A DNA stretch of 24,000 bases from positions 23,839-47,838 of the forward strand of contig JAXDMK010000127.1 in NCBI GenBank assembly GCA_034666105.1. Direction: 5' to 3'. The first letter of the stretch is position 1; every line of letters starts with the position of its first letter. Shown here one piece after another: positions 3,356 to 20,257 of this stretch. The stretch is from Actinomycetota bacterium (GTDB lineage: Bacteria; Actinomycetota; Acidimicrobiia; Acidimicrobiales; AC-14). The notes below the pieces were generated by a model that made no database searches, was not told the origin of the DNA, and worked only from the letters and a program-made list of their open reading frames with translations. The position numbers and the translations under genes were made by a program.

Positions 3356-3416
3356 ATCACCAGAGTGGCGCACTTCTGAGGAGTAGGGCGCCGAGGGACG
3401 GGTACGGTGCCAAAAG

Positions 3417-3851
3417 ATGGACCCGGACCGAGCTCGGAAGCCCACGCCGGGGCGGATGCTTCGCCGTGGGCTCACCAAACGGTGCCCGGTCTGCGGCAGC
3501 GGCCACGTCTTCGACGGCTGGTTCCGGATGAAGGAGCGCTGCCCCCGCTGCGACTACCAGTTCGAACGGGAGGAGGGCTTTTTCCTGGGCGCGTACACGG
3601 TCAACCTGGCCATCTCCGAGGGCCTGCTGCTCCTCGTGGCCATCTTCCCCCTGATCTTCCTCCTCGGCACCAACCGCGACGTGAGCATTTGGCCCATCGT
3701 CGGGATCGGGCTGGTGGCGGCCATCGCCGCCCCCCTCGTCTTCTATCCGTTCTCCCGCACCATCTGGTCGGCCGTCGACCTGGCCCTGCGGCCCCGGGAC
3801 CGACCCGAGCCGGCCGACCGCCACCACCTGCCAGCGAAGACCGACTCATGA
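3417..3851 (+). CDS. DUF983-type zinc-ribbon membrane protein
   Basis: Two CxxC pairs (CPVCGSGHVF...CPRCDYQFERE) are followed by two hydrophobic helices (LLLLVAIFPLIFLL, IVGIGLVAAIAAPLVF). The stop overlaps the kinase start (ATGA at 3848-3851). The start could instead be the Met at 3456. Confidence 0.7.
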   Translation: MDPDRARKPTPGRMLRRGLTKRCPVCGSGHVFDGWFRMKERCPRCDYQFEREEGFFLGAYTVNLAISEGLLLLVAIFPLIFLLGTNRDVSIWPIVGIGLVAAIAAPLVFYPFSRTIWSAVDLALRPRDRPEPADRHHLPAKTDS

Positions 3852-5425
3852 CCGAGCAGGTGCTCGGCGGCCGCTATCGCATCGTCAGCCACGTGGCCAA
3901 GGGCGGTATGGCCGAGGTCTACCTGGGCCACGACCAGCTCCTCGACCGGCCGGTGGCGATCAAGGTGCTCGTCCCCGACCTGGCCCCCGACGCCACCTTC
4001 GTGGAGCGCTTCCGCCGGGAGGCCCAGGCCGCGGCCGGGCTCAACCACCACAACGTGGTGTCCGTCTACGACTTCGGCCAGGACGACGGGGCGTACTACA
4101 TCGTCATGGAGTACGTCGACGGGCCGACGCTGCGCGACATCATCCGCAGCGAGGGACCGATGGCGCCGGCCAGGGTGATCGAGGTCGGGGCCGAGATCGC
4201 GGCCGGGCTGGCCGCGGCCCACCAGCGCGACCTCCTCCACCGGGACATGAAACCGGCCAACGTCCTGATGACGGCGTCGGGAAACGTCAAGGTGGCCGAC
4301 TTCGGCATCGCCCGGGCCGCCCACTCCGCCCGGGAGGGACTCACCATGCCGGGGGCGGTGGTGGGCACCGCCACCTACCTGTCGCCCGAGCAGGCCATGG
4401 GCGAGCCCCTCGACCAGCGCTCGGACGTGTACTCGCTGGGGATGGTGCTCTACGAGATGCTGGCCGGCCGGGCCCCGTTTTCCGGCGACACGCCGGTGGC
4501 GGTGGCGTACAAGCAGGTCAACGAGGTGCCTCCGCCCCCGTCGGTCTACAACCCCGACGTCCCGCCTGCGCTCGACGGCATCGTCATGCGGGCCCTGGCC
4601 AAGCGGGCGGCCGACCGCCAGCAGTCGGCCGAGGCCCTGCGGGCGGAGCTCCTCGACGTGCAGTTCGGCGCCGCCGGGTCCGACGCCACGGTGGTCGCGG
4701 CCGGGGCCGCGGGCGGGGCTGCGGGGGGGACCGCCCTGGTCGACGCCACCGCCACCGCCGTCGTGGCCGGACCGGCCACCTCCATGATGCCGCCGCCGAC
4801 GGGTGTCGACATGGGCGCCCCGGTGGGCCCGCCGCCCCGGCCGATGGGGCCGGCGCCTTCCCCCTACGGGCGCCGCCGGCTGACGGCGGTGGTGCTGGTC
4901 CTCCTGGCCGCGGTGGCCGCCATCGCCCTGATCAGCACCCTCGGGGGCGACGACAAGAAGGCGGAGCCGGTGACGGTGCCGTCGGTGGTCGGCTTCGACG
5001 TCAACGACGCGGTGGCCGAGATCAACCGGGTCGGCCTCAAGCCCCACACCGAGACCAAGAAGGAGCTCGACGGTGCGATCGACACCATCGTCGAGCAGGA
5101 TCCGGTCGGAGGGGCCACGGCCAAGAAGGGCGACACGGTGAAGCTCTTCCTCCCCCTGGGCAGCTCGGAGACCAGCATCACCACCACCCCCACCACCGCG
5201 CCCACGACCACCGACGCGCCCGCCACCACCCAGTCCCCCCAGACCACCCAGGCCACGGCCCCGGCCACCACCGCGGCCACGGTCGTCACCATCCCTCCCA
5301 CCACCGCCCCGCAGGTGACGGCACCGCCCACCACCGGCGCCACCGTCACCAGCGTCGTCTTGTCGGTCCCGGCACCGCCGCCGCAGCAATCGGCGTCGGG
5401 ACCACCGGGGCGAGGCCGCGACTAG
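3848..5425 (+). CDS. transmembrane Ser/Thr protein kinase with one extracellular PASTA domain and a Thr/Pro-rich tail (PknB-like)
   Basis: Hanks kinase motifs are present: [39 protein letters not shown] single TM segment follows ([21 protein letters not shown], about 4873-4945). One PASTA-like unit ([25 protein letters not shown]...GDTVKLFL) spans about 4970-5160. A T/P/A low-complexity tail spans 5161-5400. I chose the ATG at 3848, not the track start at 3407. Confidence 0.9.
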
Positions 5426-6351: not shown

Positions 6352-7530
6352 ATGTCATCGATGGCCACTCCCGAGCAGGCGACGGCGGCCCTGGCCGCGG
6401 TGAGCGAGGCCGTGCTGGGGGTGGCGGGCGACCTGTCGGTGGCCACCGTCCTCCAACGGCTGGCGGCCGCGGCCCAGGCCCTGGCCGACGCCCGCTACGC
6501 GGCCATCGGCGTCCCCGACGATGACGGCGACGGCTTCGCCCAGTTCATCCACGTGGGCATGAGCGACGAGCTGGTGGAGGCCATCGGGCCCCTGCCCAAG
6601 ACCCACGGCCTGCTCGGCTCGATGCTGCTCGACCCCATCCCCTACCGCACCGACGACGTGCGGGCCGACCCCCGGTTCAGCTGGTGGCCGGCGGCCCATC
6701 CCCGGATGCGGTCGTTCCTGGGCGTCCCCATCGTGTTCAAGGGCGACGTGGTGGGCGCCTTCTACCTGGCCGACAAGGAGGGCGGCGGCCGGTTCACCGA
6801 CGACGACGAGTCGCTCATCGGCCTGCTGGCGGCCCACGCCGCCATCGCCATCGAGAACGCCCGCCTCTACGAGAAGAGCCGGGAGCTGAGCATGGTGGAG
6901 GAACGGAACCGCATCGCCCTGGAGCTGCACGACGCCACTGCCCAGACCCTGTTCGGCATCCGCCTGGCGGCCGACACCGCCCTCGGCCTGCTGACCACCG
7001 ACCCCGACCGGGCCGCAGCCGAGCTGGCCACCGTCCGGGACCTGGCCGGCACCGCCGCCGGCGAGCTGCGCTCGTTGATCTTCGCCCTGCGCCCGCCCGC
7101 CCTCGACGCCGACGGGCTCCTGCCCGCCCTGGGCAAGCACCTCGATCTCCTCGGCCGCACCCACAAGCTGGCGGTCGCCCTCCACCCCCCGGGGGACGGG
7201 CTCGACGGGCTGCCGGCCGACGTCGAGGCCGACCTCTACCGGGTGGCCCAGGAGGCGCTCACCAACGTGGTCCGCCACGCGTCGGCCACGTCGGTGACAG
7301 TGACGGTCTCGGTGACCACGGGTCCCGACGGCACCCTCACCCTCACCGTCGCCGACGACGGGACCGGCTTCGACCCCGGCGCCCGCAGCATCCGGGCCCA
7401 CCGCCTCGGGCTGACGTCGATGGCGGTCCGCACCGCCCGCCACGGGGGGACGACCCGGGTGGAGTCGGCCCCCGGCCGGGGCACCACCGTCACCGCCGAG
7501 GTTCCCCGTTCGTGGATCCGGCAGCCGTGA
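6352..7530 (+). CDS. GAF-domain sensor histidine kinase (HisKA_3 / NarX-DegS class), cytoplasmic
   Basis: The N-terminal region of about 170 aa is GAF-like (YAAIGV...FLGVPIVFKGDVVGAFYLADK). The H-box is EERNRIALELHDATAQTLFGI. The ATPase motifs are QEALTNVVRHA (N), DDGTGFD (G1) and GLTSMAVRTARHGG (G2). I saw no TM segments. Confidence 0.9.
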   Translation: MSSMATPEQATAALAAVSEAVLGVAGDLSVATVLQRLAAAAQALADARYAAIGVPDDDGDGFAQFIHVGMSDELVEAIGPLPKTHGLLGSMLLDPIPYRTDDVRADPRFSWWPAAHPRMRSFLGVPIVFKGDVVGAFYLADKEGGGRFTDDDESLIGLLAAHAAIAIENARLYEKSRELSMVEERNRIALELHDATAQTLFGIRLAADTALGLLTTDPDRAAAELATVRDLAGTAAGELRSLIFALRPPALDADGLLPALGKHLDLLGRTHKLAVALHPPGDGLDGLPADVEADLYRVAQEALTNVVRHASATSVTVTVSVTTGPDGTLTLTVADDGTGFDPGARSIRAHRLGLTSMAVRTARHGGTTRVESAPGRGTTVTAEVPRSWIRQP

Positions 7531-8171
7531 TCCGGGTGCTGGTGGTCGACGACCACCCCATCGTGCGCCAGGGACTGCGGTCGTACCTCTCCCGCCGGGA
7601 GGGAATCGAGGTGGTGGGCGACGCCGGCGACGGGGAGTCGGCCGTGGCCCTCACCGCCGACCTGCGGCCGGACGTGGTGCTCATGGACCTGGCCATGCCG
7701 GGCATGGGCGGGCTGGCCGCCATCCGGGAGGTCGTCGCCCTCGAGCTGGGGGCACGCATCCTGGTCCTGACCAGCTTCTCCTCGGAGGACCAGGTGCTGC
7801 CGGCCATCCAGGCCGGCGCCGCCGGCTACCTGCTCAAGGACGCCTCGCCGGAGGAGGTCGAGAGCGCCATCCGGGCCGTCCACGCCGGCGAGGGCCGCCT
7901 CGACCCGTCCCTGGCGGCGGTGGTGATGGCCGCGGCCGCCGGCCGGACCCGCACCGACGAGGACGAGGGCCTGGCCCGGCTCACACCCCGGGAGACCGAG
8001 GTCCTCCGCCTGCTGGGCCAGGGGCTGTCCAACCGGGCCCTGGCCGAGCGCCTGTTCGTGTCGGAGAAGACGGTGAAGACCCACGTCAGCAGCATCCTGG
8101 CCAAGCTCGAGCTGGCCGACCGCACCCAGGCCGCCCTGTTCGCCGTCCACCACGGCCTGGTCGAGGACTGA
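7527..8171 (+). CDS. NarL/LuxR-family response regulator (REC + HTH)
   Basis: The GTG start at 7527 overlaps the kinase stop (GTGA). The REC domain includes VLVVDDHPIVRQGL and VVLMDLAMPGMGG. The LuxR HTH is LTPRETEVLRLLGQGLSNRALAERLFVSEKTVKTHVSSILAKL. Confidence 0.9.
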   Translation: MIRVLVVDDHPIVRQGLRSYLSRREGIEVVGDAGDGESAVALTADLRPDVVLMDLAMPGMGGLAAIREVVALELGARILVLTSFSSEDQVLPAIQAGAAGYLLKDASPEEVESAIRAVHAGEGRLDPSLAAVVMAAAAGRTRTDEDEGLARLTPRETEVLRLLGQGLSNRALAERLFVSEKTVKTHVSSILAKLELADRTQAALFAVHHGLVED

Positions 8172-12206: not shown

Positions 12207-13193
12207 ATGACCGCACCGCCCCGACGTTCGATCCTGCTCACGACCATGCTGACGGTCCTCGCGCTCGTCGTGGGAGCCGTCGGTGCCGGCGCGGACGAGA
12301 TCGGTGACAAGCAGGCGGAGGCGGAGGCCGTGGCCGGACGGCTGGCCGACCAGGCCCGCGCCATCGTCGCCCTCGACAAGGAGCACCGGGCCGCGGAGGA
12401 CCGTCTGGGCCAGGTCCAGGTCGCCCTCGACCAGGCGCAGACGGAACTGGCGGGGGCGTCGACCCGCCAGGAAGAGGCCCGCCGGCTGCTCGTCGCCCAC
12501 GCCCAGGCCGCCTACGTGACCGGCGGGTCGATCTCCTTCGTCGGCAACCTGGCCAACGGGGCCGCGCCCGACGGCGTCGCCCGCAACACCTACATGCGCC
12601 TGGTGACGGGCGAGGACCGGCAGGCGGTGGGCCGTATGCGGGCGGCCCGGGAGGACCTCGAGATCCGCCGGACCCAGCTCGACGCCGCCCGCCGCAAGGC
12701 CGCCGACCAGGCCGACACCGTCAGCGGCGACCTGGAGGAGCTGCAGCACGCCATGACCGCCCAACGGGCCCAGGTGGCCAAGGTCGACGGCGAGTTGGCC
12801 ACCCTGGTGGTGGCCGAGCAGGCCCGGGCCGAGGAAGCCGCCCGCCAGGAGCGGGCGTTGCGGGACGCGGAGGCGGCGGCGGCCCGGGCCAAGGCCGTGC
12901 CGACCGCCGCCGCCGCCCCGTCGATCCTGGCCGCGGCCTCGACGCCGGCGCCGGGGCTGGCCCTGTCGATGGACGAGGCCTTCGCCTGCATCCGCCAGTT
13001 GGAGTCGGGGAACAACTACTCGGCGCCCGGCGGCGGCGCCTACCAGTTCCTGGACGCGACCTGGGGGTCCCTCGGCTACAGCGGATCGGCCCAGGACCAT
13101 CCCCCGACCGACCAGGACGACGGCGCCCACCGCCTCCAGGCCCGCAGCGGCTGGGGTCAGTGGACCACCGCTTCCCTCTGCGGCCTCATCTGA
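12207..13193 (+). CDS. secreted coiled-coil protein with C-terminal transglycosylase-like (Rpf/SLT-type) domain
   Basis: The signal peptide is MTAPPRRSILLTTMLTVLALVVGAVGAGA. About 200 aa of heptad-like A/E/R/Q-rich sequence resembles a CwlO-type coiled coil. The C-terminus ACIRQLESGNNYSAPGGGAYQFLDATWGSLGY...GWGQWTTASLCG resembles the C-x3-ESGGN...G-x-QF-x3-TW motif of transglycosylase-like muralytic domains. Confidence 0.75.
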   Translation: MTAPPRRSILLTTMLTVLALVVGAVGAGADEIGDKQAEAEAVAGRLADQARAIVALDKEHRAAEDRLGQVQVALDQAQTELAGASTRQEEARRLLVAHAQAAYVTGGSISFVGNLANGAAPDGVARNTYMRLVTGEDRQAVGRMRAAREDLEIRRTQLDAARRKAADQADTVSGDLEELQHAMTAQRAQVAKVDGELATLVVAEQARAEEAARQERALRDAEAAAARAKAVPTAAAAPSILAAASTPAPGLALSMDEAFACIRQLESGNNYSAPGGGAYQFLDATWGSLGYSGSAQDHPPTDQDDGAHRLQARSGWGQWTTASLCGLI

Positions 13194-13495: not shown

Positions 13496-13753
13496 TTAGC
13501 CGTTGTGCTTGGCCCGGCCGGTCCGCCAGACGAGCAGACGGTCGACGAGGGCGCCGAGGACGGCGGTGATGGCGAGGACGCCGATGAGGGGCGCTCTCAC
13601 ATCGCCGACGACGTAGCCGATCCGCACCGACTGCCCGTTGTCGAGCAGCAGGGCCAGCAACACGATCACCGTCACCGCCAGCCCCACGATGCGGGCCGTC
13701 TCCCGGTTGTCCCTCGGCTTGTCGGCTTCCGCCACGAGGCGAACGTAGCCCAA
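13496..13753 (-). CDS. small membrane protein, LapA-domain/DUF1049-like (85 aa)
   Basis: Two hydrophobic helices (IVGLAVTVIVLLALLL, LIGVLAITAVLGALV) are separated by NGQSVRIGYVVG, as in LapA-domain proteins. The track start at 13753 is a TTG, and an in-frame GTG at 13735 is an alternative. Confidence 0.55.
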   Translation of the reverse strand: MGYVRLVAEADKPRDNRETARIVGLAVTVIVLLALLLDNGQSVRIGYVVGDVRAPLIGVLAITAVLGALVDRLLVWRTGRAKHNG

Positions 13754-13802: not shown

Positions 13803-14339
13803 TTACGTCCCACCGTGCCCGGTCATCCCTACCACCACCGCCACCTTCGACAGGCGACCGAGGGCGGGATGGCGGACGCACGCCAGGAACAGGCACAGCG
13901 CCGACTGGGCCAGCACCGCCGGGGCCAGGGCGGGCGACGGCCCCACGGCCCCGCTGGCCGCCGCCCACCACCGGGCGGGGGCCGACATGGCGGGCCACCG
14001 GGTGGCGTAGGCGAAGTCGAGCGGAGCCACGCGGTAGTTGGCCAGGACGTGTTCGTAGGTGCCGAAGGCGGCCACCAGGACCAGGCCGAGGGCCACCCAC
14101 CGCACGGCGCGGATGGTGCGGGCCGCGGGACGAACGGCCATGAGGACGACGGCCACCGCGGTGACGGCCACCGCCGCCCACGGGACCAGCTGCACGGTTG
14201 AGTCCCAGTGGCGGAGGGCGGCCAGCTCGAGGGCGGTGCCGGCGGTGCCCAGGCCGGCCAGCAGGAGCAGGCCCTGGCGCAGGGGCCGGGCGGGGTCGGC
14301 GAAGTCGGCCGCCGCCGTTGGAGGGTCCGGCCGGGTCAC
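13803..14339 (-). CDS. hypothetical 4-TM membrane protein (178 aa)
   Basis: This is the C-terminal part of track ORF 13803..15392. The GTG start at 14339 overlaps the stop of the upstream lipoprotein gene (GTGA). Four hydrophobic segments are present (LLLLAGLGTAGTAL, VPWAAVAVTAVAVVLMAV, WVALGLVLVAAFG, LAPAVLAQSALCLFLACV). I recognise no family. Confidence 0.6.
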   Translation of the reverse strand: MTRPDPPTAAADFADPARPLRQGLLLLAGLGTAGTALELAALRHWDSTVQLVPWAAVAVTAVAVVLMAVRPAARTIRAVRWVALGLVLVAAFGTYEHVLANYRVAPLDFAYATRWPAMSAPARWWAAASGAVGPSPALAPAVLAQSALCLFLACVRHPALGRLSKVAVVVGMTGHGGT

Positions 14340-14755
14340 GGGACGAGGGTGGCGACGATCTGGTCGACCACGCCCGGTCCCGGGTTGTACTTGGCCAGTT
14401 CCTGGCGCAGCTTGGCGAACGTCGGGTCGTCGGCGACGTAGGGCCGGTACTCCTCGACCTCCCTCGCCCACTGGGCGGGGCTGGAGATGCCGGCGGCGGT
14501 GAAGGCGGCCTGCAGCTCGGCCCGGGTGGCGTCGTTGGCCGACACCTTCCCGGCCGCGGACGGGGCGGCAGTGGTGGTCGGGGGGACGACGGTCGTGGCC
14601 GGGACAGTCGGGACGGGTGCGGCAGCCGTCGTGGCGGTGGTGGCGGCGCCGGCGGCCGCGGTCGACGGCGTGCCGCTCCCGCCCCCGCCGCAGGCGACGA
14701 GGGACAGAGCCGCGGCCAGACCCAGGCCGGCCAGGCGGGCAGTGGTGATACGCAT
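14336..14755 (-). CDS. lipoprotein with Thr/Ala/Pro linker and small helical (possibly helix-hairpin-helix-like) C-terminal domain
   Basis: I chose the ATG at 14755 (MRITTARLAGLGLAAALSLVACGG), which has a GGAGG RBS 5 nt upstream and a lipobox (LVAC). The linker is T/A/P-rich. The C-terminus NDATRAELQAAFTAAGISSPAQWAREVEEYRPY resembles ComEA/PsbU-type HhH segments, but this assignment is weak. Confidence 0.65.
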   Translation of the reverse strand: MRITTARLAGLGLAAALSLVACGGGGSGTPSTAAAGAATTATTAAAPVPTVPATTVVPPTTTAAPSAAGKVSANDATRAELQAAFTAAGISSPAQWAREVEEYRPYVADDPTFAKLRQELAKYNPGPGVVDQIVATLVP

Positions 14756-14833
14756 CGATTCCTCCGGATGGTGGGGGGTGTCCACTCCACTCTCGGGTCC
14801 CTACCTGGGAGGTACCTGGACGCCCGGTGGGAG

Positions 14834-15595
14834 TTACCCGGAAGCGAGAAGGGCCGCCGCCACCTGACGGTACAGGCCGGTCAGGGCGTGGTCGGGCTGG
14901 CGCACGGCGAGGATGCCGGCGCTGCCCAGCTCCAGGAGGTCGTCCGAGTGGGGTAGCACCGCCGCCACCTCGCACCCGTAGGTGGTGGCCACCTTGGCCC
15001 GCACCTCCTCGGCGTCGTAGCCGGCCGGCGTGTTGTTCACCACCAGCGTGATCCGGGGCACCTTGAGCCGGCGGGCGACGGTGAGGGTGACGTGGGTGCC
15101 CTCGAAGTCCTGCTGGTCGGGCCGGAGGACGATCGCCAGCGAGTTGCACATGGCGATCGACAGGAGCGTCTCCTCCACCAGCCCGGGGTGGGTGTCGAGG
15201 AGGAGGACGTCGAGGGAGAGGGTCTGGATGAGCGACCGGACGCCCTCGTTGAGCACGCCGACGTCGTAGCCCTCCCGCATGACCCGGGCGATGTCGTGGG
15301 CCCGGATGCTCGACGGCACCAGCCACACCTTGCCGCCGGCGGCGGCCGCCGTCCCGGGGGTGACGTCGTGGGCCGCGTCGACCATCGTGCACTGGCCCCA
15401 GAGGTAGTGGTTGAGGGACTGGCCCATGGTGTCCTGGTCGAGGCCGAACAGGATGTGGATGCCGGGCGACTGGATATCGGTGTCGACCACGCCCACCCGC
15501 TTGCCGTCGGCGGCCAGGAGGGCGGCCACATTGGCGGTGGTGTTCGACTTCCCCGTCCCACCCCGGAACGAGTGGACGGCGATCAGGATGGCCAT
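14834..15595 (-). CDS. MinD/ParA-family P-loop ATPase (SIMIBI class)
   Basis: The deviant Walker A is HSFRGGTGKSN, with Arg where MinD/ParA have the signature Lys. Switch/Asp motifs are VGVVDTDIQSPGIH and DVLLLDTHPG. The length is 253 aa. GGGAGGA lies upstream of the ATG at 15595. Confidence 0.85.
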   Translation of the reverse strand: MAILIAVHSFRGGTGKSNTTANVAALLAADGKRVGVVDTDIQSPGIHILFGLDQDTMGQSLNHYLWGQCTMVDAAHDVTPGTAAAAGGKVWLVPSSIRAHDIARVMREGYDVGVLNEGVRSLIQTLSLDVLLLDTHPGLVEETLLSIAMCNSLAIVLRPDQQDFEGTHVTLTVARRLKVPRITLVVNNTPAGYDAEEVRAKVATTYGCEVAAVLPHSDDLLELGSAGILAVRQPDHALTGLYRQVAAALLASG

Positions 15596-15635
15596 GGCGT
15601 CCTCCCGGGAGCTACGCCTGTAGGCAGGGGGCGGG

Positions 15636-16343
15636 TCACTGGTCGGCCGCGATCCGCAGCTCGTCGACCCGCCGCTCGAGGTTCTGGAAGTACTCGGTCT
15701 CGGTCACCTCCGCCGCCCGCCGGGCGCTCCGGGTGTGGTCGATCTCGATGGACAGCTCCCGCACCTGCTCTTTCAGCCGGTCCTCCCGCTCCTGGACGTG
15801 GCGGGCCATCCGGGTGAACACCCGGGCCATCTGCCCGAGGGCGTCGGTGCGCCGGCTCACCGGCTCCAGCAGCTCCGGCTCGAAGCGGCCGGCTTCCATG
15901 GCGATGGCGGCGTCGACCACCCGGCCCACCTGCTCCAGGTACTCCCGCTGGAGGTCGAGCAGCCGCTTCTTGGCCAGGCCGGCGTTGATCCGGGCCCGCA
16001 GGAGGCTCCGGTCGAAGGGCTTGGGCAGGTAGTCCTCGGCGCCCATCTCGATGCCGCGGACCACGCTCTCCATATCGTCCACCGCCGAGATCACGATCAC
16101 CGGCACGTGGGTGAGGGTGGGGTCGGCCTTCATCGCCGCCAGCACGTCGAACCCGTCGGCCAGGGGCATGACGATGTCGAGCAGGACCAGATCGAAGGGC
16201 CGGCTGCGCAGCATGTCGAGGGCCTCCAGCCCGTTGGACGCACTCTGGACCCGCAGGCCCTCCTGCTCCAGGCTGCGCGTCAACAGGAGCCGGTTCAACG
16301 ACTCGTCGTCGACGACCAGCACCGTCCCGGCGGGAATGGTCAT
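15636..16343 (-). CDS. response regulator: REC domain plus about 110-aa helical/coiled-coil C-terminal region, no recognisable output domain
   Basis: The REC domain has an intact acidic pocket (VVDDE), phospho-acceptor (LLDIVMP), Ser (VISAV) and Lys (LPKPF). The C-terminal LGQMARVFTRMARHVQEREDRLKEQV is HAMP/coiled-coil-like. The ATG overlaps the stop of the upstream 1026-aa gene (ATGA at 16340-16343). Confidence 0.9.
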   Translation of the reverse strand: MTIPAGTVLVVDDESLNRLLLTRSLEQEGLRVQSASNGLEALDMLRSRPFDLVLLDIVMPLADGFDVLAAMKADPTLTHVPVIVISAVDDMESVVRGIEMGAEDYLPKPFDRSLLRARINAGLAKKRLLDLQREYLEQVGRVVDAAIAMEAGRFEPELLEPVSRRTDALGQMARVFTRMARHVQEREDRLKEQVRELSIEIDHTRSARRAAEVTETEYFQNLERRVDELRIAADQ

Positions 16344-19300
16344 GGTCGACTCACACTAGGCGTGGGCTGGGCGACGTCGAGATCCTCCATCTCCACCCGC
16401 ACGATCACCGGGCCGGATCCGGGGTCGAGGGCGGCGATGACCTGGCTGGTGGTGATGCCGACGTCGAGGGTGACGGGTCCGTCGCCCCCGTCGAGGCGGG
16501 CGCGGGCCTGGAGGGGGAACGAGTCGCCGGTGAAGGTGACGTGGTGGAGCCACACCTTGAGGTCGTGGACGGGTCCGGCAAGGGGCCGGAAGGTGGCGGT
16601 TCGGAAAGAGGGGTAGTCGGCGATCTGGCCCGACGGGACGTCGTGGTCGATCCGGGAGCCGTCGGCGTAGGTGAGCGACACTTCCCCGGCGGCGGGTTCG
16701 CCGCCGGCCGTCATCGAGAAGTAGGCCCGGTCGGCGGGCTCGTCGTCGACGGCCCGCACCTCCACCACCAGCCGCCGGCGGAAGGCGCCCCCCTTCCCGA
16801 CGGCCACGGTGAGGGCGAGGATGCCGGCGCCGGCGAGGAAGCCGCCGGTGCGCCGCCACGGGTCGTCCCAGATCACCAGGGCGTGGGCGAACACGCTGGT
16901 CACCGACAGGACGTAGACGGCGACGAGGACCACCGGGTGTCCCCGGAGACGTCCGGTGGCGGCGGTGCTGTACTCGCCCCGCCGGCGGCTGGAGGCGAGC
17001 AGGAGGACGGGGTAGACGCCCGCCAGCAGCGACACCACGATCACGCCCACGAAGCCGATGAGGCCGGCGAACGACCCCGACCCGGTGGCGAGCATCCACC
17101 CGGCCAGGGAGAAGACGCCCACCACGGGCGCGAGCCCGACGGCCACGCCGGCGGCGGTGCCCGCCAGGGCCCGCCGCACCGCCGGCAGGGTCCGCGGCGG
17201 GGCCAGACCGGACGGGTCGGGGTCGGGGCGGCGGGGGTCGGGGCGGCGGGCATGGGCGTCGGCGTCGCCCCCGGGCCCGTCGGCGTCGGCGGCCATGGCG
17301 GCCCAGACCCGGTCGGGCAGGTTCCGGGCCCGGCGGACGGCCATGCGGGCCTGGTAGCGGTGGTCGTCGTCGGCGTCCGACTCGGAGACCAGGCCCCGCT
17401 CCAGGAGCGACTCGAGGACCTCGCGGGCGCCGGAACGGTCACCGCCGGCGTGGGCGACGACCTGCTCGAACACCACGCCGCCCTCCCGCGCCATCCACCC
17501 CACCATCGCCGCCTCCGCCTCGTCGACGTCGAGGAGGTCGGCCATGCCGGTCCCCAGCGCGTCCCAGTCGCCCTCGTAGGAGACGGCCAGCGACGACGCC
17601 ACCCGCAGGCGGACGCTCCCGGGGGACGCGTCGAGGATGTCCAGGGTCACCTGCAGGCCCCGCTCGCCGATTCCGGGGACAGCCTTGGTGAGGGGTGACT
17701 GGACGTTGTCGCCCAGCAGGGCCCATGGGTCCTCGGCCGTGGCCTCGACCCGGTGGAGGGCGCCGTCGAGGTCGACGTCGAGGCGGAAGCGGGGCCCCCG
17801 GTCGAGGCCGAGATAGGTCACCGCCATCCGGGCGGGGGGCCGGCGGCTCGACGGCCGCCGTTCGGAGAGGACCAGGGTGCCGCCCCGGCGGGGCAGGAGC
17901 ACCACCGGGTCGGGGTGCGACGGCAGCCGCTCCCGGGTCAGGTTGTAGAGGGCGAGGCTGTAGTGGATCGATCCCATGCCCATCCCCAGCACCACGTAGA
18001 CCGCGCCCAACACGCTCACCAGCGGCCCCACCTTGTCGGCCAGCGGCACCAGGGCGGTGCCCGTCTCCCGGGCCAGCACCCCCCCGTCGACCGCCCCACC
18101 CACCGTGAGCACCCACAGGCAGTAGACGACGAGGGCGGTGGCCTGGGCGGCCACGACCCCTCTGACCAGCGCTTTTCCGGTCGGCTCCCGACGCAGCACC
18201 TCCTGGCCGCACAGGCTCACCGACAGGTGGCCGAAGAAGGCGGCCAGGATCACCCCGAACACGGAACCGACCAGGGCGGCGTCGAAGGGACGCCCGGCCA
18301 CGAACGGCAGCTCGATCCGGGTGACGTTGGCCATCTCCAGGCTGGGGACCGACAGGAGGGTGATGACCAGGATCATGGTCAGGTTCACGATGCCGACGAC
18401 GATGGCGACGGCGATGGTGGCGTCGAGCGAACCCCTCCGGATCATGAAGACGGCCGCCGCGAACAGGAGGGCCACGAACAGCTCCGGCGGCAGACCGGTG
18501 GCGCCGGCCATCGTCGACCCGATTCCGACCTGGTCGGCCACCATGATCAGGAAGCTGAAGACGAAGAGGGCGCCGGTGAGCACCACCGACCCGGCCCCGC
18601 CCAGGTAGTCGTGCACCATCTTGCCGATGTAGGCGGCCCCGTAGCGGACGGAGCCGCTGCGGGCCACCGCCTCCCCCATGGCCGCGGCGGTGACGATGTT
18701 CACCAGGCCGAGGACGGCGAGCACGACCACCCCCGCCAGGGGTCCGATGCCGGCCAACGCGATGGGCAGGGCCAGCATGCTCGTCCCCACCGTCTCGGTG
18801 AGGCTGAGGACGTAAGCCGACCACGCCGGCGGGAGTGACTCCAGCCGGGTGGCGAGGCGGGTCCACAGCCAGCGCAGCCGTCCGCCGGCGCCGAGGTCGT
18901 CGGCGAAGACCCGTTCGATCGGCTCCTCGTAGAGCTGCCGGTAGGCGGCGGCCACCAGCTCGTCGTCGAGGCCGACGGCGGCGCGGATGCCGGGCACCGC
19001 GTCCCTGGTGAAGACGTACTTCTCGCCCAGGAGGTGGGCGAGGGCGGCCCGGCCCCGGGGGTTGGAGGGAACGAGCGGCGCCCAGTGGGCGGCGTAGCGC
19101 TCGAGGTCGTGGATGCGGACCGGGAAGGGGGGCTCCCGGCCCCGGGCGAAGGCGTCGACGAAGGCCAGGTCGCGGTCGCGGACGGTGTCGTCGGTGAGGA
19201 AGGGGGCCATCGCCTGCCGGGCCCGGGCCGCCAGGTGGCCGGTGCGGCTCTCGATCAGGAACAGCAGCGTCCGGGCCCGCCGGGCGGTGAGGCCCCCGAC

Positions 19301-19420
19301 GAGCTGGGTCCAGTCCGCGCGATCCCGGCCATCCGACGTCGTCCCGCCAGTCTGGCCGGGGCCCGCCGGCCGGGGCAAGGACCCTAGGATGCGGGCGGTG
19401 GTGCTCGACCCCGCCGCCAT
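16340..19420 (-). CDS. large polytopic membrane protein: cytoplasmic N-domain + APC/aromatic-amino-acid-permease-like TM core split by a soluble insert + C-terminal beta-rich domain
   Basis: 1026 codons with normal coding composition. About 12 hydrophobic helices are visible by eye: 8 in aa 200-490 and 4 in aa 750-880. The TM1 motif LTETVGTSMLALPIALAG resembles the G-x-G-MLALP motif of the Trp/Tyr permease family. A soluble insert spans aa 495-750 and a soluble C-terminus spans aa 881-1026. The start is uncertain: either the ATG at 19420 (antisense overlap with Hpt) or the TTG at 19378. Confidence 0.8.
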   Translation of the reverse strand: MAAGSSTTARILGSLPRPAGPGQTGGTTSDGRDRADWTQLVGGLTARRARTLLFLIESRTGHLAARARQAMAPFLTDDTVRDRDLAFVDAFARGREPPFPVRIHDLERYAAHWAPLVPSNPRGRAALAHLLGEKYVFTRDAVPGIRAAVGLDDELVAAAYRQLYEEPIERVFADDLGAGGRLRWLWTRLATRLESLPPAWSAYVLSLTETVGTSMLALPIALAGIGPLAGVVVLAVLGLVNIVTAAAMGEAVARSGSVRYGAAYIGKMVHDYLGGAGSVVLTGALFVFSFLIMVADQVGIGSTMAGATGLPPELFVALLFAAAVFMIRRGSLDATIAVAIVVGIVNLTMILVITLLSVPSLEMANVTRIELPFVAGRPFDAALVGSVFGVILAAFFGHLSVSLCGQEVLRREPTGKALVRGVVAAQATALVVYCLWVLTVGGAVDGGVLARETGTALVPLADKVGPLVSVLGAVYVVLGMGMGSIHYSLALYNLTRERLPSHPDPVVLLPRRGGTLVLSERRPSSRRPPARMAVTYLGLDRGPRFRLDVDLDGALHRVEATAEDPWALLGDNVQSPLTKAVPGIGERGLQVTLDILDASPGSVRLRVASSLAVSYEGDWDALGTGMADLLDVDEAEAAMVGWMAREGGVVFEQVVAHAGGDRSGAREVLESLLERGLVSESDADDDHRYQARMAVRRARNLPDRVWAAMAADADGPGGDADAHARRPDPRRPDPDPSGLAPPRTLPAVRRALAGTAAGVAVGLAPVVGVFSLAGWMLATGSGSFAGLIGFVGVIVVSLLAGVYPVLLLASSRRRGEYSTAATGRLRGHPVVLVAVYVLSVTSVFAHALVIWDDPWRRTGGFLAGAGILALTVAVGKGGAFRRRLVVEVRAVDDEPADRAYFSMTAGGEPAAGEVSLTYADGSRIDHDVPSGQIADYPSFRTATFRPLAGPVHDLKVWLHHVTFTGDSFPLQARARLDGGDGPVTLDVGITTSQVIAALDPGSGPVIVRVEMEDLDVAQPTPSVSRP

Positions 19421-19742
19421 CGACCGGCTGGTCCTCGCCTTCGGTCACGAGGGCAGGGGCGTCGTGGCCGAGCTGGTGGCCACGTTCCTGGCCGAGGCCC
19501 CGTCCCGCCTGGACGCCCTGCGCCGGGGGGTCGCGTCGGGCGACCCGCGGGAGGTGCACCGGGCCGCCCACACGTTGAAGTCGGGCGCGGCCACCCTGGG
19601 GGCGTCGGAGCTGGCGGCGGTGTGCCGGGAGGTGGAGGCGTTGGGTGGCGCCGGTGACGTGGCCGGCGCGGCCGCCCTGGTCCCGGCGGTGGAGGCCGGC
19701 TACGACCTGGCCCGGCAGGCGTTGCTCGAGGCCGTCGGATGA
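19389..19742 (+). CDS. stand-alone Hpt (histidine phosphotransfer) protein, 117 aa
   Basis: The motif HRAAHTLKSGAATLGASELA matches the Hpt H-x-LK-G/S-x4-G consensus, including the phosphorylatable His. I chose the ATG at 19389 (MRAVVLDPAAIDRL) within track ORF 19113..19742. The stop overlaps the GNAT start (ATGA). Confidence 0.8.
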   Translation: MRAVVLDPAAIDRLVLAFGHEGRGVVAELVATFLAEAPSRLDALRRGVASGDPREVHRAAHTLKSGAATLGASELAAVCREVEALGGAGDVAGAAALVPAVEAGYDLARQALLEAVG

Positions 19743-20257
19743 CGGATGCGCTCGACGGGGCGTTGGTACGGCTGCGGCGGGCCACCCGGGACGACATCGG
19801 CGAGCTGGTGCGGATCCGGGGGACGCCGGAGGTCTACGCCCGGTGGCGGGGCGGCGACGACCTGACCGCGTCGGTGGAGGAGGACTTCGACGACCCCGAC
19901 CTGATCGGCTACGTCATCGAGCTCGACCGGCGGATCGTGGGGTGGATCCAATGGGAGGCGGAGGAGACGCCCGACTACCGCCATGCCAGCGTCGACATCT
20001 TCGTCGACCCGGCGGTGCACGGGCGCGGCATCGGCACCGACGCGGTGCGCACGCTGGCCCGGCACCTCCTGCGGGATCACGGCCACCACCGGCTGGTGAT
20101 CGACCCCGCGGCCGACAACGAGGCCGCCATCCGGGCCTACGCCAAGGTCGGCTTCCGGCCCGTCGGCATCATGCGCCGCTACGAACGGGCCTCGGACGGC
20201 ACCTGGCACGACGCCCTCCTCATGGACCTCCTGGCCGACGAGTTCGTGGAGGAGTAG
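19739..20257 (+). CDS. GNAT-family N-acetyltransferase (Acetyltransf_8 / AAC(6')-like subgroup by eye)
   Basis: The acetyl-CoA motif A is VDPAVHGRGIGTDAV. NEAAIRAYAKVGFRPVGIMRRY and the C-terminal W-x-D-x-LLMDLL are typical of this subgroup. Confidence 0.85.
   Translation: MTDALDGALVRLRRATRDDIGELVRIRGTPEVYARWRGGDDLTASVEEDFDDPDLIGYVIELDRRIVGWIQWEAEETPDYRHASVDIFVDPAVHGRGIGTDAVRTLARHLLRDHGHHRLVIDPAADNEAAIRAYAKVGFRPVGIMRRYERASDGTWHDALLMDLLADEFVEE

Follow-up and report, generated by a model that had tools for sequence, protein, structure and literature searches.

A candidate three-gene signalling module with a receiver-type adaptor, a MinD/ParA-type ATPase and a giant APC-fold membrane protein in Actinomycetota and other Bacteria

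Background

ATPases of the ParA/MinD family as a rule have a partner and a cargo whose genes lie next to their own (10.1101/2022.06.09.495121). Here we will discuss a locus in which an ATPase of this type is encoded next to an adaptor with a receiver (REC) domain and a giant membrane protein with an amino-acid-permease (APC) fold; a stand-alone Hpt protein is encoded divergently. The locus is found in a stretch of 24,000 nucleotides (nt) from an Actinomycetota bacterium of the order Acidimicrobiales (GenBank assembly GCA_034666105.1, contig JAXDMK010000127.1, positions 23,839–47,838 of the forward strand). This whole stretch will be called the window; the related loci which we compared with it have names of an L and a number (L001, L002 and so on). 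We propose that the locus is one form, the REC type, of an effector module of three genes with a wide distribution, in which the adaptor would signal through the ATPase to the giant. We consider this proposal moderately probable.

A small dimerising ATPase with a deviant Walker A motif, encoded beside a partner and a membrane target, is also found in BcsQ-BcsE/BcsR (on cellulose synthase), TadZ/CpaE, FlhG, ParC-ParP and PpfA-TlpT. With BcsE and TadZ the partner includes a receiver-like domain. The module differs from these systems by its target, a single APC-fold polytopic protein, by its partner, a signal adaptor with swappable inputs and a specific C-terminal helix, and by its ATPase, which has an arginine instead of the signature lysine. 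Furthermore the module is not known to position anything. Another group of systems, the SLC5-histidine kinases CbrA/CrbS, LysP-CadC and DctA-DcuS, share with the module a LeuT-fold transporter-like protein which is genetically tied to two-component signalling (for CbrA see PMC13022988). In all of them the transporter is the sensor, either fused to the kinase or regulator or modulating it. The giant of the module is instead a separate gene, placed downstream of the adaptor and the ATPase in the signalling order which we propose; it represents another branch (AAAP/HAAAP-like), with N- and C-terminal domains of its own.

The chain from hybrid kinase through receiver and Hpt to a terminal receiver is the one known from ArcB, TorS-TorR, LuxU-LuxO and RcsCDB, and the full chain is present in loci orthologous to ours. 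However the terminal regulator of the module lacks a DNA-binding domain and has a HAMP-like/coiled-coil tail as its output, and in the window the kinase is missing from the locus. Chemoreceptors, with a Cache-TM-HAMP-coiled coil (TM, transmembrane) acting on CheA/CheW, resemble the Cache variants of the adaptor, in which a periplasmic sensor, a TM segment and HAMP likewise feed a cytoplasmic coiled-coil tip that would address an ATP-using enzyme. The tip of the module, with about 47–55 amino acids (aa), lacks the long four-helix bundle and its methylation sites, and the enzyme addressed would be a MinD-type ATPase and not a histidine kinase. Two further systems are functional analogies only. 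In ArsA-ArsB a nucleoside triphosphatase of the SIMIBI class docks on a protein of the secondary-carrier type and alters its action; in SLC38A9-Rag the carrier-like protein belongs to Aa_trans, which is also the best Pfam match of the giant. The giant has neither metalloid-binding sites nor Roadblock partners, and its sequence kinship with these proteins is at the level of the superfamily only.

None of the building blocks (phosphorelay, HAMP, ParA/MinD ATPase, APC fold) is new in kind. The complete gene set is not described in the curated Pfam, NCBIfam and PADLOC families, no paper on it was found in full-text literature searches, and the survey of ParA/MinD cargoes (10.1101/2022.06.09.495121) omits it. 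No solved structure covering its family-specific parts was found. The claim of the first-pass annotation that no system of this composition has been described therefore agrees with the curated families, solved structures and literature searched. When we compared the proteins with the PADLOC defence models, the giant and Hpt had no match, and the REC and ATPase proteins gave generic weak domain matches only.

Results and discussion

Distribution and synteny of the module

A scan of one genome per species gave 78 distinct loci with a relative of the giant; about a dozen more were found by look-ups, approximately 90 in total. The loci were mostly seeded on the giant, their open reading frames (ORFs) run from stop to stop in GC-rich DNA and most of the genomes are metagenome bins. 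The six-frame ORFs of 82 loci were searched with the proteins of the window. An orthologous ATPase (E 1e-76 to 1e-113) is encoded in 60 of them, and the C-terminal 113 residues of the adaptor are matched in 56. Both genes nearly always adjoin the giant and have the same direction. In a well-flanked set of 37 non-redundant loci, where the giant has 2.5 kb or more of DNA to either side, the ATPase and the adaptor tail are both present in 29; two loci have the ATPase alone and six have neither. The association of the three genes is far beyond chance. Synteny in other genomes had been set beforehand as the test which could refute the first-pass annotation, and it holds: the locus is, as had been suggested, an uncharacterised signalling module, syntenic in many genomes.

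The module is found in at least eight phyla, among them Actinomycetota, Chloroflexota, Cyanobacteriota, Pseudomonadota, Desulfobacterota, Acidobacteriota and Methylomirabilota. Its carriers include alpha- and gammaproteobacteria, Syntrophobacter, Methylomirabilis, Rokubacteria and Bipolaricaulia. It is common in soil Actinomycetota and Chloroflexota, and its cultured carriers include Patulibacter minatonensis DSM 18081, Paraconexibacter sp. AEG42_29 and Ornithinicoccus halotolerans. The order of the genes varies (RMG, GRM and MGR, with R, M and G for the REC, MinD-type and giant genes) with a constant membership. The most common order is adaptor-ATPase-giant; the order of the window, giant-adaptor-ATPase, is found in five other loci. 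Look-ups seeded on the ATPase led to five distinct arrangements, and four of these have the giant as a neighbour. The distance matrices of the three proteins are correlated (r 0.84–0.89) and none of 500 permutations reached the observed values, although the history of the species contributes to this correlation. An all-against-all clustering of the neighbouring genes did not detect any further widely conserved gene besides the kinase; many of the clusters are antisense shadow ORFs of the GC-rich DNA.

The adaptor has variable input domains and a constant C-terminal helix

The regulator of the window had been described as a protein with a REC domain only. In fact it has a conserved tail of 115 aa, HAMP-like and coiled-coil, after the receiver (Table 1). 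The receiver itself is typical: D12, D13, D56, S86 and K108 are the same in all or nearly all of 59 orthologues, and a comparison with Foldseek gives a template modelling score (TM-score) on the target of 0.95 to RR468 and CpxR. In the model of the adaptor helix alpha-5 continues into a helix-connector-helix, followed by a long terminal helix. Foldseek searches with this model match receiver domains only, with no structural match for the tail, and Pfam scans did not find any DNA-binding or enzymatic domain. The helix-connector-helix is weakly matched by the Pfam HAMP profile in 39 of the 59 orthologues. It aligns with HAMP domains which score above the cut-off in Cache-type homologues (39.6 bits in L029, 36.5 in L075 and 33.5 in L063); in L055 and L042 HAMP is just below it.

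Only the C-terminal helix is universal in the adaptors. Its invariant residues are R186, E187, I199, E200, I201, D202, T214, Y218 and F219, and the alignment across all input types has the consensus RE.RL..QV.EL.IEID......V.EITETEYF..L...A..LR. The domain which precedes the helix changes with the lineage. It is REC in 37 loci, a cyclic nucleoside monophosphate (cNMP)-binding domain (E 1e-20 to 1e-23) in L024, L032, L048, L058 and L065, Cache-TM-HAMP in L029, L042, L055, L063 and L075, GAF in L057 and a 7TMR-DISM region with two GAF domains in L070. Variable inputs on a constant C-terminal helix are the usual signature of an output module, which indicates that the helix is the output and that the ATPase and the giant lie downstream of it.

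A further variant is found in L090–L092, where an adaptor of 412–432 aa has a HisKA (dimerisation and histidine phosphotransfer) domain without ATPase domain, followed by REC-HAMP-tail, so that it contains its own phosphotransfer domain. A hybrid kinase and a single receiver of 127 aa come before it, a different wiring of the same relay.

The source of phosphate

The Hpt protein of the window is clearly recognised by Pfam (E 1e-17, 64.6 bits, cut-off 24.6) and has its phosphorylatable histidine, His61, in the motif HTLKSG (codon at 19569–19571). It is most similar to Hpt domains of the TorS and LuxU types. In the related loci it matches best with the Hpt domains at the C-terminus of hybrid kinases which flank the module elsewhere (E down to 2e-23). 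In L083, an 83%-identical relative, the Hpt protein is 74% identical and the histidine is kept. The Hpt gene is coupled by an ATGA overlap to a gene for an AAC(6')-like GNAT acetyltransferase (NCBIfam E 4e-50, below the cut-off). This Hpt-GNAT pair is also conserved in L083 (5893–6826).

It is correct that the locus has no histidine kinase, as had been noted. However this is only a local state and not a property of the system, since orthologous REC-type loci usually carry a hybrid kinase. In many of them a kinase of about 1000 aa is placed beside the adaptor. The six which were scanned all end in HisKA-HATPase-REC-REC-Hpt and start in various ways: with PAS repeats, a 7-TM region, HAMP-PAS or Cache; one further kinase (L089) starts with GAF. 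About 30 loci have such a hybrid kinase within the fetched DNA. No kinase was detected in the fetched DNA of the cNMP-type loci, which fits with the absence of any need for one. Intermediate arrangements are also found: L085 has a fragmented kinase and a separate Hpt gene of 112 aa directly upstream of the adaptor, in a series of REC, ATPase and giant genes, and in L034 and L047 small ORFs matching Hpt lie upstream of the REC gene. In the clade of the window the Hpt-GNAT pair faces the giant, and L083 has no kinase within 10 kb. The arrangement without kinase is thus one of several, and we infer that it is a derived state.

As the orthologous loci encode a sensor-HisKA-HATPase-REC-REC-Hpt kinase beside the REC gene, the phosphate most likely reaches the receiver of the window through Hpt from a distal hybrid kinase. 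This route had been suggested in the first-pass annotation and is very probably right. The only histidine kinase in the window (GAF-HisKA_3-HATPase) is about 8 kb away from the module and forms a complete two-component pair with a REC-GerE regulator of NarL type. We considered it as a donor and rejected it: it has its own partner and no receiver domain to feed Hpt, which makes it an unlikely source.

Proposed mechanism

Four steps may be proposed for the module. A signal would enter through the adaptor, by an input domain which depends on the lineage; in the window this would be the receiver, phosphorylated on Asp56 by the neighbouring Hpt. In this lineage only the Hpt step is local, and the phosphate would have to come from a hybrid kinase encoded elsewhere. 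The HAMP-like segment would then relay the signal to the conserved C-terminal helix (IEID...TETEYF), which is predicted to be dimeric. In a third step the helix would act on the MinD/ParA-type ATPase, most likely through its ATP-dependent dimer cycle, as other partners of ParA/MinD proteins do. Finally the ATPase would bind the family-specific cytoplasmic domains of the giant and switch either its activity, by which an amino-acid-like solute would be taken up or exported, or its position within the membrane. The first step follows from domain content and the comparison of loci. The later ones, including every contact between the proteins, the direction of control and the solute, are suggested by gene association, by the swapping of domains and by analogy with ParA/MinD systems. 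The structures which we used are predictions.

Several observations weigh against this proposal. The six well-flanked loci with neither partner are mostly from Anaerolineae, and their giants stand alone with all their domains; the giant may work without adjacent partners, or the partners may be elsewhere. In L089 (1361–7889) a hybrid kinase (GAF...Hpt), an adaptor with REC and tail and an ATPase (E 2e-114) precede a 645-aa protein with cNMP-binding, NTE_Ploop and patatin domains instead of a giant, which is absent from the whole 11-kb contig. The patatin-like protein may be an alternative effector. This suggests that the cassette can serve other effectors, which fits the proposed direction of signalling and argues against a strict specificity for the giant; the ATPase may not be specific for it. 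No fusion of the ATPase with either partner is found among the best 120 and the best 150 matches. The HAMP assignment in the adaptor of the window is below the Pfam cut-off (E 0.022, 15.5 bits, cut-off 25). A transport activity of the giant is putative; what the sequences show is the conservation of its TM1 and TM6 motifs.

The ATPase and the question of positioning

The ATPase scores above the Pfam cut-offs of ParA (58.6 bits), AAA_31 (51.5) and CbiA (48.1), and has the switch I and II aspartates of the ParA/MinD family. Its P-loop is HSFRGGTGKS (15545–15574, minus strand). In 55 orthologues with 49–68% identity RGGTGKSN, DTD and DTHPGLNEETLL are kept and DTHPG is conserved. The signature lysine of the deviant Walker A motif (K-G-G-x-x-K-[ST]) is replaced by arginine in at least 90% of these orthologues. 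The solved structures closest to it are archaeal MinD (1hyq) and the Mrp/ApbC-type protein Mrp (3kb1), with E 1e-11 to 1e-10; the CxxC motif of the Fe-S carrier type is absent from the sequence. All the curated equivalog families of MinD, ParA and Mrp have cut-offs above its scores, for example 39 bits against 212.9 for minD_bact and 66.7 against 201.75 for minD_arch. The family is very large: 7984 of the 8000 candidates scored reach E <= 1e-20, and the sources name these relatives only generically.

The main rival of our proposal is a role in spatial positioning: the ATPase would place the giant at a pole, at the septum or along the cell, or use it as a membrane anchor for other cargo, and the adaptor would be the partner which stimulates the ATPase. 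The family to which the protein belongs, with archaeal MinD as its nearest solved relative, is in line with such a role, as is the presence of partner and cargo genes beside it (10.1101/2022.06.09.495121), and many carriers come from filamentous or polar-growing lineages. The loss of the signature lysine argues against it. No gene of MinC/MinE type was found in the window, nor any nucleoid-binding or MinC/MinE-type partner in the loci; a clear additional membrane-targeting helix was not detected either, by a hydrophobic-moment test which did not discriminate. Furthermore a single polytopic membrane protein would be an unusual cargo. We consider positioning unlikely.

The giant membrane protein

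The giant was predicted to have an amino-acid-permease fold with three large cytoplasmic additions, and this description is confirmed by an AlphaFold2 (AF2) model built from 117 homologues (mean predicted local distance difference test 80.8, predicted TM-score 0.76), which has 12 TM helices. Foldseek searches of the PDB give only carriers of the APC/LeuT fold (AdiC, BasC, GkApcT, LAX3/AUX1 and Nramp), with probability 1.00, a target TM-score of 0.5–0.6 and about 315 aligned columns. TM1 and TM6 are broken as in solved members of this fold. At the sequence level the protein is more distant: it has 22.6 bits with Pfam Aa_trans (cut-off 25.6) and 28.6 with NCBIfam araaP (cut-off 350). Among 18 homologues Aa_trans is matched in 17 (best E 5.5e-10) and Trp_Tyr_perm in 11 (best E 4e-14). 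Scores below both cut-offs indicate that the giants are a divergent sister group of the AAAP/HAAAP permeases, outside the curated families. L216–A223, G389 and G397 are invariant columns; the TM1 motif VGxxxLALPIA (G-x-x-I/M-L-A-L-P) and the TM6 motif YFGH are among the columns of this kind.

The soluble domains are conserved to a different degree. The N-terminal domain is the best conserved, with a mean pairwise identity of 68%, equal to that of the TM core, and it is kept in all size variants; the beta domain, the winged helix and the C-terminal domain have about 50%. Neither the N- nor the C-terminal domain has a profile match in the PDB even at E 10. A family hidden Markov model (HMM) of the beta domain matches inside giants only. 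Relatives of the giant form 405 clusters at 50% identity (E<=1e-30). A representative search shows two size classes, one of about 960–990 aa and another of about 730–780 aa which lacks residues ~506–737. The beta domain is absent from the short forms, most of which keep the C-terminal beta domain. Loci with short forms retain the ATPase, the adaptor and often the kinase.

Full-length giants without partners are found in the Anaerolineae loci L001–L003, L012, L015, L017, L019, L020 and L022. L001–L003 represent one arrangement, in which cysS and a SpoU-type methylase gene flank the giant; L002 and L019 are on one and the same contig. In L007 an orthologue of the ATPase lies 9 kb from the giant. 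Tandem duplicates are frequent, in L083 (7392–9730), L086 (4352–6987), L014, L058 and L075. The additional copy is split or frameshifted into several ORFs in L083 and L086, which suggests decaying paralogues. A full-length giant is also found in L030, on a contig binned as Bathyarchaeia, by horizontal transfer or mis-binning.

The transporter-like core led to the idea, in the first-pass annotation, of a transceptor: the giant would sense the occupancy of its substrate and pass the signal through the REC protein to a positioning ATPase. CbrA and SLC38A9 with the Rag GTPases are precedents of such a role. The core retains the TM1 and TM6 motifs of ligand-binding APC/AAAP proteins, its large conserved cytoplasmic domains are suitable for signalling, and the window has no other sensor for the module. 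The comparison of loci points the other way. Domains with signals of their own (cNMP-binding, Cache and GAF) can take the place of REC, the linked kinases bear PAS, Cache, 7TM or GAF sensors, and a receiver would be phosphorylated by Hpt and not by a transporter. The giant itself has no kinase or phosphotransfer domain, which places it apart from proteins of the CbrA type. A direction from transporter to REC to MinD is therefore disfavoured and appears quite improbable, although some co-sensing by the giant is conceivable.

The winged-helix insert

The second half of the insert between TM8 and TM9 has weak matches with MarR_2, IclR and FeoC in 11 of 18 members of the family; the protein of the window has 14.3 bits, with a cut-off of 27. 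A profile search of the PDB gives MarR 3bpv with E 0.003, weak support for the fold class. A domain of MarR/IclR type in a cytoplasmic loop, with a long flexible linker and a conserved basic stretch RRGRQ after it, would also agree with a membrane-tethered transcription factor comparable with LysP/CadC, in which the winged helix of the giant would bind DNA and the transporter core, the ATPase and the adaptor would regulate genes. Nevertheless the domain is acidic, with a mean net charge of -4.3 in 117 homologues and -1.8 in the putative recognition helix, so that it has no basic reading surface, and short forms of about 750 aa without it still keep the ATPase and the adaptor. A DNA-binding function is thus very hard to reconcile with the data.

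A family-specific HMM shows that the winged helix is mobile. It is a separate gene of about 116 aa in L042, L067, L070 and L075. It is also found at the N-terminus of phosphohydrolases (HD/HD-CE) of about 700 aa encoded beside giants, in L050 (12463–14586), L081 (4626–6701) and L058 (7816–9930), which again speaks against a DNA reader. In L070 (135–2603) a 7TMR-DISM/GAF/GAF sensor ends in an output helix fused to a giant-type winged helix; this is the only evidence of fusion type for a contact between adaptor and giant. As the domain is acidic, missing from the short form and present as a separate gene or in other fusions, it is probably a docking module and not a DNA reader. The HD/HD-CE domain of the phosphohydrolases resembles domain III of Ppx-GppA. 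The stand-alone winged-helix gene of L070 (6696–7043) has a weak match with DUF742 (E 0.003, below the cut-off), the family of the CvnC component in the actinobacterial conservon.

It is scarcely credible that the giant is an ordinary amino-acid permease with REC, MinD-like and Hpt genes as incidental neighbours: some giants do stand alone among housekeeping genes (cysS, SpoU methylase) and the gene order varies, but adjacency extends over 29 of 37 well-flanked loci in many phyla with constant membership, look-ups from the ATPase return the giant, and the three genes of the window are translationally coupled or tightly spaced.

Organization of the locus and its neighbours

The window has a G+C content of 71–76%. 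Its giant is identical to a hypothetical protein of a metagenome-assembled Actinomycetota genome, and among named relatives those closest to the neighbouring proteins come from Acidimicrobiales. Its features are given in Table 1. Direct reading of the ORFs and their junctions confirmed the six genes, two overlaps and two gaps which had been described. The start of the REC gene overlaps the stop codon of the giant (ATGA). It is followed by a gap of 40 nt with GGGAGGA before the ATPase gene and another of 78 nt with GGAGGA between the ATPase and lipoprotein genes; each gap thus contains a Shine-Dalgarno-like GGAGG. A GTGA overlap joins the lipoprotein gene to that of the 4-TM protein.

Table 1. 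Features of the locus and of its neighbourhood in the window (positions in the window; residues refer to the protein named)
Feature	Position	Strand	Size or residues	Remarks
PknB-like Ser/Thr protein kinase	3407–5425	+		PASTA domain
GAF-HisKA_3-HATPase histidine kinase	6352–7530	+		pair with REC-GerE regulator spans 6352–8171
Secreted coiled-coil protein	12207–13193	+		C-terminal Rpf-like transglycosylase domain
LapA-domain-like membrane protein	13496–13753	-		small; adjoins the Rpf-like gene
4-TM protein	13803–14339	-	178 aa	four hydrophobic stretches
Lipoprotein	14336–14755	-	139 aa	lipobox L-V-A-C
MinD/ParA-family ATPase	14834–15595	-	253 aa
Adaptor / response regulator (REC gene)	15636–16343	-	235 aa
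Adaptor, receiver domain	15984–16322	-	aa 8–120	Pfam E 1e-30, 106 bits, cut-off 30.2
Adaptor, HAMP-like helix-connector-helix	15795–15971	-	aa 125–183	includes motif DALGQMARVFTRMA
Adaptor, universal output helix	15654–15794	-	aa 184–230, ~47 aa	QEREDRLKEQVRELSIEIDHTRSARRAAEVTETEYFQNLERRVDELR
Giant membrane protein	16340–19420	-	1026 aa	ORF
Giant, disordered N-terminus			aa 1–42	AF2 model
Giant, N-terminal all-helical cytoplasmic domain	18836–19294	-	aa 43–195	model helices; no recognisable family
Giant, TM1–TM8 of APC-fold core	17927–18829	-	aa 198–498	TM1 broken at 213, TM6 at 395–397
Giant, beta-rich domain	17570–17905	-	aa 506–617	first half of the TM8–TM9 cytoplasmic insert; model strands
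Giant, winged-helix domain	17348–17545	-	aa 626–691	second half of the insert; profile matches
Giant, disordered linker			aa 693–739	after the winged helix
Giant, TM9–TM12 of APC-fold core	16793–17158	-	aa 755–876
Giant, C-terminal all-beta cytoplasmic domain	16388–16774	-	aa 883–1011	no recognisable family
Stand-alone Hpt protein	19389–19742	+	117 aa	divergent from the giant
AAC(6')-like GNAT acetyltransferase	19739–20257	+		ATGA-coupled to Hpt

The start of the giant given by NCBI is a TTG at 19378, which leaves 1012 aa. With the ATG start of the ORF its 5'-end overlaps the Hpt gene by 32 nt; with TTG there is a spacing of 10 nt. In either case there is almost no intergenic DNA between these two genes (19376–19420), so that each promoter would have to be contained in the opposite gene, unless the transcripts have no leader. 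A scan for promoters and terminators gave results no better than shuffled sequence. A palindrome CCTAGG is found between the two divergent genes.

The lipoprotein and the 4-TM protein had been counted as members of a five-gene core, which is not confirmed. Neither has a match in the 82 related loci searched, and both are absent from L083, where a gene of NDH-2 type occupies their place. They were rejected as members of the module and are co-directional, lineage-specific neighbours. The window also encodes a small LapA-domain-like membrane protein which adjoins a gene for a secreted coiled-coil protein with an Rpf-like domain. A PknB-like kinase with a PASTA domain is also found in the window.

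Conclusions

Sensors and two-component regulators without a recognisable output domain are a long-standing gap in signalling maps, and most ATPases of ParA/MinD type outside the chromosome, plasmid and division systems are still orphans. The module provides an output helix for a family of adaptors, and for a large orphan subfamily of ATPases it provides a likely partner and target. It also suggests that a secondary-transporter-like protein can be brought under multi-signal control through an ATPase switch, and is probably a new means by which bacteria subject a membrane protein to signals. The presence of the module in cultured Patulibacter, Paraconexibacter and Ornithinicoccus makes the proposal directly testable.

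There is a substantial chance that the module represents a new output route of bacterial signalling. More tentatively, it is possible that diverse sensors converge, through the shared helix of about 47–55 aa, on a dedicated ATPase which would be a nucleotide-dependent switch acting on an APC-fold protein and occasionally on other effectors, for example a patatin-like lipase. If this is true, bacterial signal transduction would gain a new output domain, and ParA/MinD ATPases a role other than positioning.

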